Assembly (NCBI GenBank): GCA_964533715.1
Contig: CAZHNI010000002.1
Location: 46,496-110,495, forward strand
Direction of reading: 5' to 3'
Origin: an uncultured Gammaproteobacteria bacterium
GTDB taxonomy: Bacteria > Patescibacteriota > Patescibacteriia > Magasanikbacterales > GWA2-37-8
DNA length: 64,000 nt
This document shows positions 4,243-56,044 of the stretch, piece by piece. Numbering within the stretch: the stretch's first letter is position 1; each line of letters begins with the position of its first letter. The translations under genes and the position numbers were made by a program. Below the pieces are notes generated by a model. The model was not told where the DNA came from and ran no database searches. It saw only the letters and a program-made list of their open reading frames with translations.

Positions 4243-4450
4243 AGCTCATTTTATTTCTTTATACAACCCAGTGAGTTTGTTAAAAACTAATTCCGGAGTA
4301 CAAGTTACTAAAATCAACCCATCTTGATTTCATTAACTTTTAAAAAACAACCCTATCACTTTTATCACAATGTATTATGGTAAAAGTGACAGATCGGGTG
4401 GTTTTAATTCCCGAGCTATCATCGGGAGTTGATGCGGACGCCTCGGTGAC

Positions 4451-5059
4451 TTACTTGGGTGAGTGGACGGAGTGGTAGAGGGGGTGGCCGTAGACCGGAT
4501 AGCTGCCGGTCCCTTCGGCGGAGCAGGACGCGTAGCCGCCCCACTCGATGTAGAGGGCCGCGCCTGGGGGTGCCTCGTTCCAGTTCGTGCACACCACCTG
4601 GAAAGGAATCAGCTTGTCCTTTTCCAGGTGAAGCGGCGTGCTGCCTGGCATCCAGTAGCCAGAGTTGGGGCCGATTTGCTCGCCGATGGTGTCCCCCCCG
4701 CCGTAGCCAATTTCTCCGGTGGGGACTCCGTTCAGCCAGACCTCGATCCGGGGCACCCAGTTGCTGCGTTCATAGCCGAGCCACAGGGACACACCCTCAA
4801 GGTTGATCGGCTGGCAGTCGGCGCTGTCAGCGGCGTGCATGGCGCCGTTGATCAGCACCGCGACCGACTGAGACGCCGGCACCTCATCCGGCGGAGGGGT
4901 GGCCGGCTCAAAGACCGGGAAGCCCGGCACGATCATGTACTTGGCCGTCAGGGTGTACCCCGGGCGGGTTTCGGACAGCACCGGACCGCACTGTGGCTCC
5001 GGCCGATCGGCACCGCAACTAGCCGCGAGCAGCAGAGACAAAACAACCAGTTGGCGCAT
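4451..5059 (-). CDS. High-GC lipoprotein of unknown function
   Basis: Lipobox LLLAASCGA. RBS GAAAGGAAG 6 nt upstream of the ATG. GC-rich codon usage unlike the flanks. The antisense ORFs 4459-4806 and 4463-5110 are judged spurious. Confidence 0.7.
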   Translation of the reverse strand: MRQLVVLSLLLAASCGADRPEPQCGPVLSETRPGYTLTAKYMIVPGFPVFEPATPPPDEVPASQSVAVLINGAMHAADSADCQPINLEGVSLWLGYERSNWVPRIEVWLNGVPTGEIGYGGGDTIGEQIGPNSGYWMPGSTPLHLEKDKLIPFQVVCTNWNEAPPGAALYIEWGGYASCSAEGTGSYPVYGHPLYHSVHSPK

Positions 5060-5206
5060 CGGACACTTCCTTTCTTGTTTTTTAAGGAGCTACCCACTTC
5101 AGCCCCATAGAGCACGCTCTCCTTTGAGATGCTCAGGTGAGGCTTAAATGTTAGTATGTGATGTGTATCAAAGCATATTATTATAAGATGCGTCAATTGG
5201 CAAACC

Positions 5207-5375
5207 CCTTAAGCTTTGAATTACGAAACACCCATTTTGTCATCCTGAACCCCGCTCAAGCGGGGTGAAGGATCTCTGTCCGGTTGTTAACTTGGCCAAC
5301 GTTGGCCAATTAAGACAGAGATTCTTCGCTCTGCTCAGAATGACAGTTGAGTTTCGTAACTCAAAGCCCTTAAGG
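5207..5375. repeat. ~170-bp imperfect palindromic (MITE-like) element, copy A
   Basis: Outer inverted repeat CCTTAAGCTTTGAATTACGAAAC / GTTTCGTAACTCAAAGCCCTTAAGG. Inner termini TTGTCATCCTGA / TCAGAATGACAGTT. Internal hairpin CCCCGCTCAAGCGGGG. Central perfect palindrome TTGGCCAACGTTGGCCAA. Homologous to the element at 22173-22330. Confidence 0.55.
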
Positions 5376-5421
5376 GTCATAATAATAGCGTTTATCTAAA
5401 AAATATGCTAAAATATTACAC

Positions 5422-6618
5422 ATGTATAATCAGCCAGTTGCGCCAGAGAAAGTAGACCGCCCGGTGGTGCTCCACCAGGGCGTGTATAAACAAACCGCCA
5501 CTACCGCCGAGGCGGTGTTTATGATTACCGGCATGACCATTGGAGCCGGTATTTTGGGTATACCGTATGTTGTTGCCAAAGTGGGAATTTTAATTGGGCT
5601 CACGTATATAGTAATTCTTGGTCTTATCATGTTATTTTTAAATATCATGATAAGCGAAGTAGCGGGGCGGACCGGGGAGAATTTGCAGTTGCCAGGTTTA
5701 GCGGGCAAGTATTTAGGCCCGCGAGCTAAAGAAATTTTGTCTATTTCTACTGTGGTAAGTGCGGTGGGCGCGCTGCTTGCTTATATTATTGGTGAGGGCA
5801 AAGCTTTGAGCGCGCTTCTTGGAGGCAATTCTGATGTGTGGAGTGTTATTTTTTGGTCGGTAGGGAGTGGTCTTATATTAGCTGGCCTCCACCGCGTTAA
5901 AGTCGCAGAAAAAATTTTAAGTGCTTTGGTTATTGGCTGTATTACTTTTTTGTCGCTGTACTTATTACCACATATTTCGGTAAGTAATTTGACTCATTTT
6001 GACCCCAAAAATATTTTATTACCGTATGGCGTTATTTTATTTGCGCTCCACGGCACACCGGCTATCGCCGAAGCGCGGGCACTACTTAGTAATGATCGCC
6101 GCCGTTTTCGTAAAGCCGTTATTATTGGCACCTTAATTCCAATTGCGGTCTATATTCTATTTGCTCTTAGCGTGGTAGGGGCGAGTGGTCTTACTACTAC
6201 CGAAGTGGCCTCGGTCGGCCTCGGAGCCCGATTTGGTGGTTTTGTGTTGATTTTAGCCAATGTGTTTGCAGTGTTTGCTATGAGCACCGGTTTTATGGGG
6301 CTTGGTACGGCGCTGAAGGAAGTATTGGTGTGGGACCACAAACTGCCCAAATGGCTCGCCCAAAGCTTGGTCATTGGTATTCCTATTTTGTTATTTTTGG
6401 CGGGCTTTAATAATTTTGTTAATATTTTAGGTATTATCGGTGGCGTTTTTATAGGGCTTGAAGCAATTATAATGATTATGGTATATTGGCAGGCACGAAC
6501 CACCGGTCTATTTGCCCGTTCCCGGTCGGGCGCTCACCATATGTGGTTTCTGAGTGTGCCGCTTCTGGTGGTTTTTATGTTTATAACCATGCATAGTATT
6601 TTTAAATTATTAAATTAA
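5422..6618 (+). CDS. Amino-acid permease (about 11 TM helices; aromatic amino-acid / HAAAP-type transporter family-like)
   Basis: Polytopic membrane protein of 398 aa. The N-terminal GMTIGAGILGIPY motif is typical of Trp/Tyr-permease-like transporters. Confidence 0.55.
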   Translation: MYNQPVAPEKVDRPVVLHQGVYKQTATTAEAVFMITGMTIGAGILGIPYVVAKVGILIGLTYIVILGLIMLFLNIMISEVAGRTGENLQLPGLAGKYLGPRAKEILSISTVVSAVGALLAYIIGEGKALSALLGGNSDVWSVIFWSVGSGLILAGLHRVKVAEKILSALVIGCITFLSLYLLPHISVSNLTHFDPKNILLPYGVILFALHGTPAIAEARALLSNDRRRFRKAVIIGTLIPIAVYILFALSVVGASGLTTTEVASVGLGARFGGFVLILANVFAVFAMSTGFMGLGTALKEVLVWDHKLPKWLAQSLVIGIPILLFLAGFNNFVNILGIIGGVFIGLEAIIMIMVYWQARTTGLFARSRSGAHHMWFLSVPLLVVFMFITMHSIFKLLN

Positions 6619-8005: not shown

Positions 8006-9745
8006 TTATGGGGCGCTAACGGCGGCACCAAATTTGGCTCCACGATCGTCCGATGCTAGCTGATTAGAAAGGGCAGGGAGTTTAGTGTCAAAAATTTTGC
8101 CTACTACAGTGTCTTCTGCATGTACGGTTATTTCTTTTGTTATGGATAGAATGTTGCCAATTTGCTGTGGGGAAGGCGAGACGGAAACCTCAAAATATAA
8201 CCCGGTTTGGCTTTGGGCGGGCAGTTCTCTAAAATTCCAGTGTACCGTTCTAGTGTCTGCGGAATAGGTGAGCTCGGGGCCGATAGTAACGCTTTGTTTG
8301 CCGGTAAAGGCAACCCCGGGAGCAAGCGGGATGTTTACTGAAACATTGTCTACGGCGTTAACGGTGTTATTTAATGTAAGGAAAATCCAGTATTTAGTAG
8401 TTTCGCCAACGCGTGGTGGCAATGGGCCACGACCAAGCTGGTCGCCTTCAGCGGTGTAATAACGAATTTCATTTTTTCCGGAAAAATCTGTAGCCATTTG
8501 TATACTGAGAGGAGCGCTAGACTGCTTAAGCAATTGTCCAGAAACAAGTTCCGTTGATGCCTCCCAGGTAGGAGAGACGGTAAGTTGGTTGTTCGTCGGG
8601 TCGGAAGAGGCAAAGTTTTTTGCCAGTTGCAGGTTAATTATAAAATCATCTGTGGCGCCAGGTTTTGGTGCAGTTAAGGCGGTGCGTGCAAGATTATTAA
8701 TAATTAAATCTTCATGATCAACGGTGAGACGGTTATTTTTGGCTGTGGCAATTAGGTTTACCGCATGCGTGTTAAAGTGGAGACGGATTTGAGCGTTTGA
8801 AAATGCGAATGAGCTGTTATTGCGCCAGGTTATGTGGAGAGGTAATTCATCGCCGCTGTTTATAAAGGGTGGAGAGGTAGGAAAATCGGTGGTCAAATTT
8901 ACTTCTGGCTTAATAAGGGATATGCTTTGAGTATTTCTACCGAGTGGAATTGGTTGTTTGCCAACGGTGATAGTTGGAACCACTTGCGCGTTAAAGGTGG
9001 TCGCTGAAGTTGGAATAGTAAGTGTGCCGGTAAATGTTTTTGTTTCGCCTCCTTTAAGGAAAATATTTTCAAATTTTTCTTTTTCAAGGGTGCTTTGTTT
9101 CCAGTTAGTAACAATCGAAATATTTGGTACGTCGGTTGATCTTGAGTTAAAAATACTAATAGTATACGGGAGTGGTTGGTTGGGGAAAGAGGACGAAGCG
9201 GAGGAAAAAGAGGAAACCACTATACTCGCAGGTAATTCAACGAGCGTGGAGCTTAATTTTTGCTCGGTGCTAGTGTGCCCATCGGCACGATATGAAAGCG
9301 TGCCTATAATTTTTATTTCGGAGTTAGGAGTTGTCCATAGTATACCGGGGAGAACAACGCTACCCTTAGCCCCGGGTTTAATGTCGGGAAGAGTAAATCC
9401 GTTTTCTGCTGAAAAAGTTGAAGATGAAATTGTACTATAGTCAATTATAAAACCCGGAGGGAGCCGCAGTGTGATAGCGGCTTGATGAAGGGTAAATTTA
9501 TTTCGGTTGGTATATGTTGCGGACAGTTCAACTCGTTCGCCACTTTTTATGCGCGAGGTGCCGAGAGAGATTGAAAAATCAACGAGGCCGGTTGTGCCCG
9601 GTTTCCAAAAGAAGAAAAAAATGCTGGCGCCGAAAAAGGCGATGGCCAATCCAAGAAGCACGAGATCGAACACAAACAATTGCTGGGCATGTTGATAAAT
9701 ACCATGATATCGTTTGTGGTATAATTTGTGAAAAAAAGAGGTCAC
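8006..9745 (-). CDS. N-terminally membrane-anchored extracytoplasmic protein of unknown function (579 aa, Thr/Ser/Asn-rich beta-type domains)
   Basis: Single N-terminal TM helix (LVLLGLAIAFFGASIFFFFW) followed by a large hydrophilic, low-complexity beta-rich region. Confidence 0.6.
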   Translation of the reverse strand: MTSFFHKLYHKRYHGIYQHAQQLFVFDLVLLGLAIAFFGASIFFFFWKPGTTGLVDFSISLGTSRIKSGERVELSATYTNRNKFTLHQAAITLRLPPGFIIDYSTISSSTFSAENGFTLPDIKPGAKGSVVLPGILWTTPNSEIKIIGTLSYRADGHTSTEQKLSSTLVELPASIVVSSFSSASSSFPNQPLPYTISIFNSRSTDVPNISIVTNWKQSTLEKEKFENIFLKGGETKTFTGTLTIPTSATTFNAQVVPTITVGKQPIPLGRNTQSISLIKPEVNLTTDFPTSPPFINSGDELPLHITWRNNSSFAFSNAQIRLHFNTHAVNLIATAKNNRLTVDHEDLIINNLARTALTAPKPGATDDFIINLQLAKNFASSDPTNNQLTVSPTWEASTELVSGQLLKQSSAPLSIQMATDFSGKNEIRYYTAEGDQLGRGPLPPRVGETTKYWIFLTLNNTVNAVDNVSVNIPLAPGVAFTGKQSVTIGPELTYSADTRTVHWNFRELPAQSQTGLYFEVSVSPSPQQIGNILSITKEITVHAEDTVVGKIFDTKLPALSNQLASDDRGAKFGAAVSAP

Positions 9746-10254: not shown

Positions 10255-10405
10255 ATTTGTATACTATAGTATATACAAAATTTGAATTTTTGTCAAGTAA
10301 TGATGATTTTATGTTAGGATAGATTCTGTTTGTTTTGTATTAATATTTATTTTGTGTACACTATATTATACAATTATTGTATACACTATTGTATACAAAT
10401 TGTAA
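10253..10405. promoter_or_regulatory. Array of TTGTATAC(A) boxes, a candidate operator for the adjacent HTH protein
   Basis: TTGTATA-ctatagta-TATACAA (7-bp inverted repeat) at 10253-10274. GTGTACACTATA and ATTGTATACAC-T-ATTGTATACAA-ATTGTA direct repeats at 10353-10403. Confidence 0.4.
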
Positions 10406-19692: not shown

Positions 19693-19785
19693 GGGATGTT
19701 CAAATTGCGTCTTTTTGGGCATAATTTGAATGTTAAAACTGTTCTTTTACAATCTATTTGAAGCAATACAAAATGTAATAACGTT

Positions 19786-19903
19786 CCTTGGCACGAAGAG
19801 AGGATAGAAACTAGAAATTGGAAATTGGAAATTGGGGATTTTTAAATCGTCCCGAGTTTCTTATTTCTAGTTTTTAATTTCCAATTTTTCTCCGTGCCAA
19901 GGG
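19786..19903. repeat. Complex repeat/hairpin region: inverted repeat CCTTGGCACG...CGTGCCAAGG enclosing three tandem GAAATTG units plus interleaved complementary blocks
   Basis: AAACTAGAAAT pairs with ATTTCTAGTTT, and AATTGGAAATT pairs with AATTTCCAATT. The block order is not compatible with a single simple hairpin. Followed by the hairpins GGGAC-taaggtt-GTCCC and TCCGGC-tctaa-GCCGGA, the latter abutting the RBS GGAGGAGG. Confidence 0.5.
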
Positions 19904-19960
19904 ACTAAGGTTGTCCCAAGGCTTGTCCCCATTTCCGGCTCTAAGCCGGAGGAGGTTCCC

Positions 19961-20746
19961 ATGTACCAGCAGATCATCCGCATCGCCGCCCTCGTCTTCG
20001 CGCTTTTCGTCCTCAACTCCGCCCCGGCCTCGGCCAAGAAGCCGGCCCCGGTCGCCGAGATCGAGAGTCCCGACCTCTCCCTCGCGAAGGTCCGTTTCAA
20101 GACCGGCGAAAAGAAGTACGAGGCCGAGGACTACGCCGGCGCCCTCAAGGAGTTCGAGGGCGCGAAGTTCCTGCAGCCCAAGCGCATCGAGCTCGATTAC
20201 AACATCGCGCGCTGCCACGATCGGCTGGGCAACTGGGAGCAGGCGGTGAAGTTCTACACCGCCTACGCCGACACGAAGCCGAAGGACGAGAAGGAGGTGA
20301 GGGAGCGTATCGCGATCCTCAAGGAGAGGCTCGCGGCGAAGCCCCTCACCACCCCCGCCGTTGCCGGCACCCAGCCCGCTCCGCCCGCCCTGGCTCCCGC
20401 CCCCGCGACGCGGACTGACGGTGGCGTCACGCCCGCGGCTCCCGCCACCCCCTACGCCGGCAGCAAGCCGAACCTCAACCTGCCGGCCCCCGCCCCGGCC
20501 CCGCCCGCCGCGACTGTCCCGCTCGTTCCGACGACCCAGCCCGTGGCCCCCACGTCGACCAGCCCGCCCTTCTACAAGAAGTGGTGGTTCTGGACGGCCG
20601 TGGGCGCCGCCGCGCTCGTCGCGGTCGGCGTCGGCATCGGCGTCGGAGCTTCGCGGGAAACCACCTATTCCCAGACCCGCCCGGACCTGGGGACCGTTCA
20701 CTTCAACCTCAACCTCTTTCCCACCCCCGACACGGGGGGGAGGTGA
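19961..20746 (+). CDS. High-GC secreted TPR-like / proline-rich protein with a C-terminal TM helix
   Basis: RBS GGAGGAGG. Signal peptide IAALVFALFVLNSAPASA. Long Pro/Ala-rich linker. TM helix WWFWTAVGAAALVAVGVGIGVG. GC-rich. Confidence 0.65.
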   Translation: MYQQIIRIAALVFALFVLNSAPASAKKPAPVAEIESPDLSLAKVRFKTGEKKYEAEDYAGALKEFEGAKFLQPKRIELDYNIARCHDRLGNWEQAVKFYTAYADTKPKDEKEVRERIAILKERLAAKPLTTPAVAGTQPAPPALAPAPATRTDGGVTPAAPATPYAGSKPNLNLPAPAPAPPAATVPLVPTTQPVAPTSTSPPFYKKWWFWTAVGAAALVAVGVGIGVGASRETTYSQTRPDLGTVHFNLNLFPTPDTGGR

Positions 20747-20749
20747 CCC

Positions 20750-22006
20750 ATGCGCCAGACCCTCTTCGCCTTGATGGTCGCCGCCCTCCTCGCGGGGTGC
20801 GGCGCCGACATGCGCCCGTGCCCCAAGGGCGCGGTCCGTATCCACATGCAGTTCGACCAGGTCGTCCGTGATCGTGGGTACGCCGTCACGGCGACCCTCA
20901 CGATCGATGGGGTGTCGGTCCAGACCCCCTTCGACCCCAGCATCAACGGGGATGCGGAAGGGAATATGGACTTCGTCTTCACCCATGGCTACCCGGCGAT
21001 CGGTGCAGAGGCGCAGATCGACCTGGTCGTGCGTCGCAACAGCGACATCGTCGGCGAGGGGCACGCAACCTTCGAGATCACCGAAGGGTGCACCTACGTC
21101 GTCGTCCCGGTGACCGCTTCGGTGGCACCTGAGGACGGCGGCACTGATCTCGCGCGGCTCGACGGCGGCGCTGACCTGTCTCGGCCGGACCTCGCCAGTG
21201 GCGACGGTTCGGTCGACCAGGCCACCCCGCCTGACCTCACGACGCCCCCCGACCTGACGCGCCCCCCCGGCGACCTCACCGTTCCGCCCCCTGACCTCAC
21301 CGTCGCGGGGGACATGGCGCGGCTCCCGGACGCGGCCCTCCCCGACCTGACCACCGCCCCGCCTGACCTCACGACGCCCCCCGACCTGACGCGCCCCCCG
21401 GACCTCGTGGCCACGCCCGATCTGGTTCTCGCCTGCAATCTCGACGCCGACTGTGGCAGCAAGACCGGTGGTGCCTGCAAGAACGGCACCTGCCAGCCCC
21501 CTGCATGCACCGACGGCCTCAAGAACCAGGACGAGACTGACGTCGACTGCGGCGGCGCCAAGTGCGTGCCGTGCGTGCCCACCAAGGCGTGTATCAAGGA
21601 CGCCGATTGCATCATTCCGTGGTGCAACCCCAGCACCAAGAGGTGCGGCAACATGGTCGGTACGGTCTTCATCGGATCGGAGGGCGAGAAAATTGACCTG
21701 AACAACCCGGCGAACAACCCGCCGCCCGTGTGGAGCTGCCTCGACGCCTGCGCCAAGAAGTTCGGTGCCGGTACCTACCGCTGCTCCACCGTGCTCGGCT
21801 CCGTCAACGGGCTGAGCTGGTCGCAGTGCTACGGCGACGGGCAGCACTGCTCCCCTGGTGGAGAGGTGTCCGAGAGCTACAAACTCGGCACCACCTACTA
21901 CTGCCCAGGGGCGCCGGGCTGCGCCTGCTCGGCGTGGGTCGACTACCAGAACAGCGGTGGTTCGGCCTGCGCCAACGCGGGCGCCAAGTCCTACTGCTTC
22001 AAGTAG
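20750..22006 (+). CDS. High-GC lipoprotein with PPDLT(T/R)P repeats and a Cys-rich C-terminal domain
   Basis: Lipobox LLAGCGA. RBS GGGAGG overlaps the upstream stop. Repeated TPPDLTTPPDLTRPP. About 30 Cys in the C-terminal 190 aa (CxxGxCxxxxC patterns). The antisense ORF 19874-22150 is rejected. Confidence 0.7.
   Translation: MRQTLFALMVAALLAGCGADMRPCPKGAVRIHMQFDQVVRDRGYAVTATLTIDGVSVQTPFDPSINGDAEGNMDFVFTHGYPAIGAEAQIDLVVRRNSDIVGEGHATFEITEGCTYVVVPVTASVAPEDGGTDLARLDGGADLSRPDLASGDGSVDQATPPDLTTPPDLTRPPGDLTVPPPDLTVAGDMARLPDAALPDLTTAPPDLTTPPDLTRPPDLVATPDLVLACNLDADCGSKTGGACKNGTCQPPACTDGLKNQDETDVDCGGAKCVPCVPTKACIKDADCIIPWCNPSTKRCGNMVGTVFIGSEGEKIDLNNPANNPPPVWSCLDACAKKFGAGTYRCSTVLGSVNGLSWSQCYGDGQHCSPGGEVSESYKLGTTYYCPGAPGCACSAWVDYQNSGGSACANAGAKSYCFK
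21226..21398 (+). repeat. Two copies of a ~43-bp direct repeat (CCCCGCCTGACCTCACGACGCCCCCCGACCTGACGCGCCCCCC) encoding the PPDLTTPPDLTRPP motif
   Basis: Identical DNA blocks at 21226-21268 and 21356-21398. Confidence 0.6.
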
Positions 22007-22011
22007 ACCCC

Positions 22012-22057
22012 CGCCAGAGGGCGGAGCCCACTTCGGTGGTGCTCCGCCCTCGGCGGA
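22012..22057 (+). other. GC-rich hairpin (GCCAGAGGGCGGAGC...GCTCCGCCCTCGGCGG) at the 3' end of the high-GC islet
   Basis: Near-perfect 16-bp inverted repeat with no T-run after it. Confidence 0.4.
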
Positions 22058-22140
22058 TCTAACCTCGCGGTTGCCTACGGCGACCGCTTCTCTCTTGTAC
22101 TCAAGATTAGTTAAATCGTGGTTACAAGTATAGAAAAAAT

Positions 22141-22172
22141 AAAATCCCAAGGCACATGTCCGGGATTTTTTT
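22141..22172 (+). terminator. Terminator-like hairpin AAATCCC...GGGATTT followed by TTTTTTT
   Basis: 7-bp stem with an imperfect GGCACATGTCC interior, plus a T-run. Confidence 0.45.
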
Positions 22173-22330
22173 ATTAAGTTTGGTTAATAACTGTCATTCC
22201 GACTGAGGAGCTCGCGCGACGAGTGGAGGAATCCCTTGGTTCGTTAAATGGCGATTTTGGTAAAAGGGATTTCTCGACTAGGCCTCCGGCCTCGCTCGAA
22301 ATGACAGTTTTTCATTGAGCTATTTTTGTT
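22173..22330. repeat. ~150-bp imperfect palindromic (MITE-like) element, copy B, homologous to 5207-5375
   Basis: Termini AACTGTCATTCCGACTGAGG / CTCGCTCGAAATGACAGTT, inner GGAATCCCTT / AAGGGATTTC, internal hairpin CTCGcgcgaCGAG. Shares TGTCATYC, GTGRAGGA-TC and GAAATGACAGTT with copy A. The left flank ATTAAGTTTGG resembles copy A's CTTAAGCTTTG. Confidence 0.55.
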
Positions 22331-22383
22331 TGACAGTAATTGTTTAGGCCAGGTATACTATACTGGTATTATTACACTTTTTT

Positions 22384-54898: not shown

Positions 54899-54959
54899 AG
54901 TACTTTTGAGTATATCACAATTTTAAAAAATTAGCTGTAGATGCCCTAATCAGTCTTTA

Positions 54960-54998
54960 AATCAAAACCGTCCAGATGATTTCTGGACGGTTTTGATT
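54960..54998. terminator. Perfect 15-16-bp hairpin (ATCAAAACCGTCCAG-atgattt-CTGGACGGTTTTGAT) between two minus-strand genes, at the edge of the high-GC islet
   Basis: Inverted repeat read directly. Likely the terminator of the high-GC gene ending at 55058. Confidence 0.5.
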
Positions 54999-55057
54999 AG
55001 TGCTCGAGGGGGGTGGAAACCTCAGGGGGATGTCGAGCGGCATCGTGAGGGGGGGCT

Positions 55058-55894
55058 CTAGAAGATCTGGAGGTCGAGGAGGGCGCGGAGCGCCAGGGCG
55101 CGGCACATGTTGCCGCCCTTGGTCTGCATCCGCACCACCCGGTTCAGCGTCTGGAAGGCGCCGGCCGGGTTGTCGAGTCGGAGCTGGGCCTTGGCCGCGA
55201 AGAGGAGCGCGGTCCCGATGGCGTCCCCGTACTCGCCGGTGAGCGCGGTCGCCTCGGCGATCTCGATGGCGCTGGTGAAGTCGCCGGCGTCGTAGAGCCT
55301 GGCCACCTGGGCCATCATCCAGAACGGGCGGAACAGGTCGTGGTAGCGGTTGTCGGCCGCCTCCATCGCCTGCATCGCCGCCAGGTACGACGAGCGGCCC
55401 TGGTACTGGTTGATGTTGGCGAGCATGCTCGCCTCGACGACGTGGGCCGGGATGTTCCCCTCGACCCACTCGAGCGCACGAGGGGACTCGTCGCCCGCGA
55501 GCGCCTGCTGCGCCACTGCGGCGGCGGCGGCGAGCCGGTTGAAGGTGTGGCCCAGCTCGTCGCCCCTGACCACGGCGTTGTTGAACGCCGAGACCGTGGC
55601 GAGGAACGCCTCGATCGCGTAGCTGGTGTCGGTCTCGCGCGTTGCCGGGGGCGAGCGGTACTGCTCGGCGGCCAGCAGGTGCAGGTTGATCAGCGCACCG
55701 TAGCCGCCGCCGTCGCGCGTCATGATGCGGGCGTTGTAGCCGGCGCGGAGCGCGAGCGCCGTGCGCTCGACCCCGTCCGGCAGCTCCGCGATCTCCGCCA
55801 TGACCTCACGCAGGAGGACGGCGGCTTCCCCGAATCCCTCGTTGGTCTGGCGCAGCGCGTACACCCGGTCGATTTTTTTTCCGATTTCTTCCAT
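55058..55894 (-). CDS. High-GC all-helical hypothetical protein (278 aa)
   Basis: RBS AAGGAGGG 8 nt upstream of the ATG at 55894 (MEEIGKKIDRVY). GC-rich throughout. The plus-strand antisense ORFs 55340-55939 and 55000-55242 are judged spurious. Confidence 0.6.
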   Translation of the reverse strand: MEEIGKKIDRVYALRQTNEGFGEAAVLLREVMAEIAELPDGVERTALALRAGYNARIMTRDGGGYGALINLHLLAAEQYRSPPATRETDTSYAIEAFLATVSAFNNAVVRGDELGHTFNRLAAAAAVAQQALAGDESPRALEWVEGNIPAHVVEASMLANINQYQGRSSYLAAMQAMEAADNRYHDLFRPFWMMAQVARLYDAGDFTSAIEIAEATALTGEYGDAIGTALLFAAKAQLRLDNPAGAFQTLNRVVRMQTKGGNMCRALALRALLDLQIF

Positions 55895-56044
55895 GTGCTT
55901 GCCCTCCTTGTGGGCGTTTTGGGTCAAAATTTTGCTTAGCAAAAATTAAAGCACCCCTCATTTTATCATATAATAAGGTTTTTGTCAATTCGCGATCATC
56001 GATTCGTTTAAAATTTTTAACCCGCTAGTTTTTCTTGATAAATT

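Follow-up and report, generated by a model that had tools for sequence, protein, structure and literature searches.

Insertion sequences of the IS982 family are, in the ISfinder description, about 1 kb long, carry one transposase gene and produce a short target duplication of variable length. A MITE derived from this family, MITECca01, has been described in Cardinium, where it stems from ISCca4 and is presumed to move in trans by means of intact parental copies (PMC9769881). The CGTC-tagged REPs form another kind of repeat. They have an unpaired CGTC head, "changed to TGTC in many repeats", stems that start with A-T and an unpaired 3-nt tail with the consensus CCA; they are found mostly as inverted dimers with spacers of 20-100 bp that sometimes contain stem-loops, heterodimers are common, and no dedicated transposase was found for them (Di Nocera, De Gregorio and Rocco 2013, PMC3733652). 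In H. neapolitanus all the CGTC-1 dimers lie inside an outer palindrome, GGGaaGCTT-GAAAaACC...GGTaTTTCgAAGC-gCCC (PMC3733652). REPINs (Bertels and Rainey 2011; Nunvar et al. 2010, PMC2817692) and the BIMEs of E. coli also consist of two inverted REP hairpins with a short spacer, can fold either into a single long hairpin or into separate ones and, in the case of the Y and Z REPs of BIMEs, often pair units of different variants.

Within the window, the whole stretch of 64 kb that was analysed, positions 5207-5373 form an imperfect palindrome, and we consider that positions 5213-5367 (copy A) are very probably a non-autonomous MITE whose parent insertion sequence, of the IS982 family, is common in Patescibacteria (CPR). 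The element is of an ordinary kind, an IS982-family MITE, with an unusual interior, a REP-type doublet. Copy A has two nested layers, the outer MITE at 5213-5367 and an inner hairpin doublet at 5238-5345. As in MITECca01, copy A is short and non-coding, has inverted repeats that match an IS982-family element and shares few bases beyond the repeat with its parent (only ∼25 nt per end are common to MITE and insertion sequence), and movement in trans by intact parental copies is likewise supposed. It differs from MITECca01 in its host, a member of the Patescibacteria, in its length (155 bp vs ∼240 bp) and in that the same ends enclose many unrelated, always palindromic interiors, with a CGTC/TGTC-type REP doublet, in several subtypes, in ∼10 of 27 elements and other palindromic fillers in the rest.

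The evidence for the outer layer begins with the ends themselves. A repeat search found arms at 5213-5229 and 5351-5367 that are 94% complementary, and a second pair at 5259-5280 and 5314-5335. The terminal inverted repeats are 19 bp long, with the family consensus GCTTTGAATTACGAAAC(T/A)C, from which each end in the window departs by one mismatch: the left repeat (5213-5231, + strand) reads GCTTTGAATTACGAAACAC against the consensus GCTTTGAATTACGAAACTC and matches with an nhmmer E value of 3.7e-5, and the right one (5349-5367, - strand), which reads GAGTTTCGTAACTCAAAGC on the + strand, with 1.1e-5. The nhmmer profile was built from 68 ends at other loci, and its only matches in the window are 5213-5229 and 5348-5367, both with E ∼1e-5. 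The extra arms that lie outside the core, GCTTTGAATTACGAAAC at the left end and GTTTCGTAACTCAAAGC at the right end, are found nowhere else in the window; the end sequence of the IS982-type elements can also be given as GCTTTGARTTACGAAAC. The element is flanked by CCTTAA at 5207-5212 and again at 5368-5373. The initial annotation had taken the outermost CTTAAG...CTTAAG for an inverted arm, but most of it is this 6-bp direct repeat, which seems inverted because TTAA is self-complementary, and the target-site duplication that the same annotation suggested looking for is therefore present around copy A. An empty site, with a single CCTTAA, would read ...GGCAAACCCCTTAA|GGGTCATAAT... As had been stated, the element has no coding capacity, no ORF of at least 60 aa lying wholly within 5213-5367; the ORFs listed nearby (4899-5147, +; 4948-5196, -; 5422-6618, +; 5430-5708, -) are all outside.

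These ends recur outside the window. When one genome per species was searched, the 19-mer GCTTTGARTTACGAAACTC was present at 76 loci, against ∼9 expected by chance by our own estimate, and 59 of the 76 are in MAGs titled as Patescibacteria lineages (a count by record title), among them Magasanik-, Falkow-, Uhr-, Staskawicz-, Vogel-, Nomura- and Saccharibacteria. Four lone matches of the 19-mer, in Nostoc, two Salipiger and a Clostridia MAG, seem to be due to chance, since a partner arm is missing in all of them, and the two matches of the 17-mer outer repeat in viral contigs, neither with a partner arm, were also taken as chance. The same 17-19 nt bound both insertion sequence and MITE copies in loci L097-L177. 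Of the end matches, 45 of 81 reach a contig end within 250 nt, and in each genome they fall into a few identical types of end, which is the expected signature of a multi-copy insertion sequence because such a sequence breaks assemblies. Full-length copies were found as well. The one in L128 (1516-2495, 980 bp) has a single ORF for a transposase of 267 aa (1593-2396) that scores 139.1 bits against the NCBIfam model NF033520, 'IS982 family transposase', with a cut-off of 130; no flanking duplication was seen around this intact copy. The one in L151 (2494-3551, 1058 bp) also has one ORF, with a DDE_Tnp_1_3 domain, and is flanked by the duplication ACCAA; its transposase reaches only 88 bits because an in-frame stop truncates the ORF. 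The insertion sequences with these ends thus range from 980 to 1058 bp, and the length, gene count and 5-6-bp duplications of elements of this type fit the description of the IS982 family.

The short elements bounded by these repeats number ∼27 and are 71-179 bp long, as counted by pairing approximate ends. Direct repeats flank ∼19 of the 27, of 5 bp in ∼14 and of 6 bp in five, the window copy included, and none was seen in seven; the 6-bp duplication in the window is therefore longer than the commonest length in the family, which is 5 bp. The smallest element (L177) has 71 bp and a 33-nt centre. Three further elements in metagenome contigs (L097, L098 and L099) have the paired outer arms around unrelated interiors, each with its own flanking direct repeat (AGGTAA, TTTAG and ATTGA, respectively). 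One and the same MITE was also found at different sites: in a Saccharibacteria MAG with different duplications (L152 and L157), and in the genome nzgw350, where a doublet-bearing MITE is present at two sites, L104 (TTATA) and L132 (CCTGT). The 64-kb window contains one copy of the MITE and no IS982 transposase, blastn of the element against annotated phage and plasmid records gave no match, and our literature searches gave no report of such a MITE in Patescibacteria.

IS982-type ends were observed, in addition, in MAGs labelled Nanoarchaeota, Pacearchaeota and 'uncultured Gammaproteobacteria' (L146 2531-2653, L171 and others from CAYJXK01, CAYHPG01 and CAZKXN01), and the element in the Nanoarchaeota-labelled MAG is a MITE of 123 bp whose interior is a classical CGTC-type doublet. 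These labels may reflect an error of labelling or binning, or a real spread of the family outside Patescibacteria.

Taken together, the terminal repeats, the duplication and the autonomous relatives uphold the mobile-element option among those that the initial annotation had offered, whereas its structured-RNA and att-like options find no such backing. A DDE transposase from a full-length copy elsewhere in the genome would bind both 19-bp terminal repeats and move the 155-bp unit, duplicating 5-6 bp of target; the CCTTAA repeat is observed, and its origin as a duplication would follow from this mechanism.

The inner layer is made of two hairpin units. Half-unit 1 (5238-5276, + strand), which matches GTCATNNNGA..GANNNATC, consists of the head TGTC, the stem ATCCT, GA, a variable hairpin ACCCCGC-TCAA-GCGGGGT, GA, the stem AGGAT and the tail CTC, and its triplets CCT/AGG are self-complementary inside the unit. 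Half-unit 2 (5318-5345, - strand; the pattern match is 5320-5344) reads TGTC-ATTCT-GA-GCAGAGC-GA-AGAAT-CTC on its own strand; its triplets, TCT/AGA, are again self-complementary within the unit and differ from those of unit 1, and its variable part is minimal, a 7-nt GC-NNN-GC. The heads are thus at 5238-5241 and, on the - strand, at 5342-5345. Between the units, the spacer (5277-5317) has its own stem (TGTC.../...GACA) and the perfect 18-nt palindrome TTGGCCAACGTTGGCCAA at 5292-5309. The half-unit pattern GTCATNNNGA...GANNNATC has four matches in the window, which make up two inverted pairs, with 0.07 expected.

When units were parsed with no constraint on head or triplet, the consensus was T-GTC-AT-YYY-GA-[5-44 nt]-GA-RRR-AT-C. 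A T precedes GTC in 306 of the 315 units even though the search did not require it, the AT...AT that starts the stem is present in every parsed unit, the common triplets are all pyrimidines, and the shortest variable part is a 7-nt GC-GNA-GC mini-hairpin; ATCCTGAGCGAAGCGAAGGAT is an example of a unit with the TGTC head. A search for whole doublets with TGTCATYYYGA-N70-100-TCRRRATGACA gave 96 viral loci, many with several copies and up to seven in 14 kb, and the inner RRR-AT-Y motif, which this search did not demand, is present in 98 of 117 distinct matches. The inner units are a real family. A full-text literature search with the unit sequence returned only unrelated primers, and a link of such hairpins with small GIY-YIG nuclease genes was considered and set aside, since all the loci together have one GIY-YIG-like ORF, in a locus with no TGTC unit.

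RNA folding of 5200-5390 gave -85.4 kcal/mol for the + strand and -91.3 for the - strand, against means of -43 and -49 (sd ∼4) for shuffled sequences, that is, z = -9.9 and -10.2, and none of 200 shuffles was as stable as the real sequence. The stable fold expected by the initial annotation is thus there on both strands (z ∼-10), and all the inverted repeats that it listed are present at their places. It had, however, read the whole palindrome as one hairpin, and covariation places the conserved inner pairing within the half-units and not across them: in 69 of the doublets with the inner RRR-AT-Y motif the outer triplets differ between the two units, and in 61 of these both units are perfectly Watson-Crick self-complementary, while pairing between units would give mismatches (e.g., CCT/AGG vs TCT/AGA). 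Because of these 61 of 69 doublets, the conserved structure is the hairpin within the unit and not the long hairpin. In copy A the structure with unit hairpins, in which the IS ends close a four-way junction, is predicted at -68.0 kcal/mol vs -75.9 for the long hairpin, a cost of only ∼8 kcal/mol. The G-U and C-A mismatches of heterodimers, one of each per strand, give no information on the transcribed strand.

Judged by their sequence, the inner units fit the CGTC/TGTC-tagged REP superfamily in most respects, with the head, the A-T start of the stem, a 3-nt tail, inverted dimers (the four units of the window are two of them) and heterodimers. Published CGTC REPs have plain 8-9-bp stems and loops of 4-5 nt, whereas here a 5-bp stem leads into a tandem G-A/G-A internal loop and then into a second, variable hairpin (5-44 nt); a stem of nine positions is approached by the minimal form alone (unit 2, GC-AGA-GC), with G-A mismatches at two of the nine. 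The tail is CTC or, more generally, CYC and not CCA, and the hosts are Patescibacteria and phage contigs, outside the 2013 survey of Di Nocera et al. The units also differ from REPINs and their RAYT system, as they have no GTAG head and the search of the window for a cognate RAYT gave nothing, and RAYT-type movement leaves no target duplication, whereas the doublet of copy A is located inside DDE-transposon ends with a duplication. The outer palindrome of H. neapolitanus appears to resemble the arrangement of copy A and, loosely, the IS982-type end sequence, with the difference that here the outer palindrome could be assigned to IS982 ends and has a target duplication.

Doublets of this type are also found without any IS ends. 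In the window, this is the case of copy B (22192-22306), which has a TGTC head on both units, unit 1 at ∼22192-22236 (+ strand, TCC/GGA) and unit 2 at ∼22265-22306 (- strand, TTC/GAA). The region 22173-22330 had been annotated as a second copy of the whole element, but what both copies have in common is the inner skeleton only, TGTCATYCYGA-[variable]-GARGRATCYC-[centre]-GRGATYCYTC-[variable]-TCRRRATGACA. We considered that copy B could be a decayed MITE, as its flanks weakly resemble the terminal repeat by eye, and discarded this, since the terminal-repeat profile finds nothing near copy B even at E values up to 100. To its left there is, by eye, a hairpin followed by a T-run (∼22140-22175), and a promoter-like site lies beyond it at 22330-22359. 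Doublets without IS ends are also present in L116, L124, L126, L166 and L181. Copy B shares GTTCGTTAA-T-GGC with L116, whose doublet centre (TTAATTTGGCCAAC) resembles that of copy A (TTAATTGGCCAAC). A scan of 533 kb of Patescibacteria loci, with the window added, gave 32 strict units, whereas five shuffles gave 0-4 (mean ∼1.4). Of the 32, 12 lie within or next to IS982-type ends, and the other 20, most of them in doublets, are naked. In L116, from a Magasanikbacteria MAG, the doublet at 1430-1600 was seen inside different outer inverted arms (AGTAACTATYCAGTTCTTT), and this could be a MITE derived from a different IS family, with the same cargo.

In phage contigs the doublets are mostly between co-directional genes, with a median distance of ∼50 nt after the stop codon, and the recurrent ORF families beside them are apparently structural or packaging proteins (terminase-, portal- and tape-measure-like, by eye from the sequences), with no RAYT among them. 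An array of doublets present in phage contig L029 (330-720) is absent at the orthologous intergenic site of L094 (826-1092) and L045 (3631-3913), where the flanks are 74-80% identical. The array in L029 extends the upstream ORF. GC-rich phage contigs (e.g., L037, L043 and L069) have many TGTC doublets, which are sometimes in tandem or have extra partial heads or tails.

Because it is found naked in the window, in other Patescibacteria and in phages, and present or absent at an orthologous phage site, the doublet is a module of its own, with independent turnover, and in copy A it is the cargo between IS982 ends. Either the MITE would have captured it as filler during its formation, or the doublet would have entered a minimal end-to-end MITE at its centre, and the composite would afterwards have moved as a single unit.

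The naked doublets and the polymorphic phage site also feed the alternative that retains most weight, namely that the REP doublet is the primary mobile element, REPIN-like, moved on single-stranded DNA by an enzyme of the RAYT/HUH type or another one, with the outer arms being merely a palindromic target, a solo pair of IS982 ends, into which it inserted. We regard this as rather improbable. The REP dimers centred in outer palindromes, as all the CGTC-1 dimers of H. neapolitanus are (Di Nocera et al. 2013, PMC3733652), agree with it, and so does the 71-bp MITE of L177 with its 33-nt centre, since it shows that a minimal MITE exists. Against it, no HUH...Y motif pair was found in a six-frame translation of the window, by a regular-expression test that is weak, the CGTC repeats are themselves without a dedicated transposase (PMC3733652), and at the boundary between doublet and linker no duplication or conserved junction is visible. 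Moreover, it is the outer ends that the direct repeat flanks, and one composite is present at both nzgw350 sites, so that the last move was that of the whole composite. The alternative concerns the origin of the composite and is compatible with its later movement by the IS982 transposase.

Much less probable is that copy A acts as a structured non-coding RNA, or in cis as a regulatory hairpin (a terminator, stabiliser or attenuator) for the permease or for the gene upstream. The very stable fold predicted on both strands would suit such a function, REP-type elements elsewhere act as mRNA stabilisers or terminators (reviewed in PMC3733652), and the location of phage doublets shortly after stop codons between co-directional genes points the same way. 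Copy A, on the contrary, lies in the 362-bp spacer between divergent genes, a 202-aa ORF (4451-5059, -) and a Trp/Tyr-type permease (5422-6618, +), and it is past the promoter-like site of the left gene (5203-5175), so that it is outside that transcript; no promoter-like site was detected on the + strand for the permease, no T-run follows the hairpin, and the same ends enclose unrelated interiors. The known RNA that the initial annotation had contemplated was not found either, as no Rfam family fits: neither the window nor six doublet-rich loci gave a match at the gathering score, and at E values up to 10 there is only noise, the sole match in 5100-5500 being a plant miRNA hairpin model with 19.6 bits vs a gathering score of 200. 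Syntenic relatives (those with the permease followed by metK, or by the DUF11/ECF-sigma block) also lack the element upstream of this gene, where they have 93-274 bp with neither terminal repeat nor TGTC motif; their permeases are 58-60% identical and the intergenic DNA is not alignable.

As for the neighbouring genes, those of the window include DUF5667, DUF11 and an ECF sigma factor, and the homologues of the permease, the best of them 69% identical, are named Magasanikbacteria or Patescibacteria; a look-up of the exact permease sequence in the protein collection gave no record. The promoter-like site at 5203-5175 faces left and is 4 bp from the MITE. Nothing suggests any effect of the MITE on its neighbours and, since it lies between divergent genes with the promoter-like site adjoined but intact, it is probably neutral. 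In one syntenic relative (L181, GCA_964641245.1), several other intergenic regions have TGTC motifs (∼1289-1425, 8101-8199 and 8995-9062), in the block that is syntenic with 8-12 kb of the window, and none was seen upstream of the permease. An AT-rich inverted repeat with 33-nt arms is present at 10255-10400, upstream of the ECF sigma gene.

Finally, that copy A could be a site-specific recombination site, att-like or attC-like, marking the edge of the neighbouring GC-rich islet can be practically dismissed, since, even if copies A and B each have an islet immediately on their left (4351-5150 and 19851-22150), the other two islets have no such element, no integrase is seen by eye among the Pfam-scanned neighbours, the ends misfit the attC core sites (RYYYAAC/GTTRRRY), nothing observed requires a site of this type, and the terminal repeats, duplication and IS match explain the element fully.

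The islets themselves are four (201-1300, 4351-5150, 19851-22150 and 54951-55950), with 61-67% GC against a window mean of 42% and one or two ORFs each, and they could derive from horizontal transfer from a high-GC donor or from an assembly chimera. Islet 3 has a TPR protein (19961-20746, +) with an N-terminal hydrophobic stretch that by eye looks like a signal peptide, and a 418-aa ORF without Pfam match. At its left edge there is a second long imperfect palindrome (19783-19905), with 56-nt arms that are 73% complementary and GAAATTGG three times and a sequence related neither to the MITE nor to the TGTC units, and at the left edge of islet 4 a perfect 17-nt inverted repeat (54960-54998, AATCAAAACCGTCCAGA / TCTGGACGGTTTTGATT). 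Directly before islet 1, positions 90-165 resemble the 3' part of a tRNA or tmRNA (GGTTCGAATCCC...GCACGCCA), which is a typical integration site. ARAGORN found no tRNA or tmRNA in the window, and its silence at 90-165 is perhaps due to the window start cutting the gene.

MITEs and insertion sequences are hardly described in Patescibacteria. The family visibly breaks MAG assemblies, and knowing its ends helps assembly, binning and annotation. In addition, the composite joins two kinds of repeat that are usually separate, DDE-transposon ends and REP-type hairpin doublets, and offers a testable route for the movement of the 'orphan' CGTC/TGTC repeats; that REP doublets, reported to be without a transposase, are carried inside IS982 ends is possibly new. 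The conservation of the hairpin skeleton from Patescibacteria to GC-rich phage contigs points to a shared binding partner or structural role. Tentatively, we would propose that REP doublets may spread in Patescibacteria between IS982-family ends and that the hairpin skeleton may be functional cargo and not inert filler, a possibility that we hold to be real but the less likely one. If it were true, the skeleton would be a site for a conserved protein, or a single-stranded DNA or RNA structure that aids transposition or insulates the insertion, and the outer palindromes around the CGTC dimers of Halothiobacillus would be the same phenomenon.
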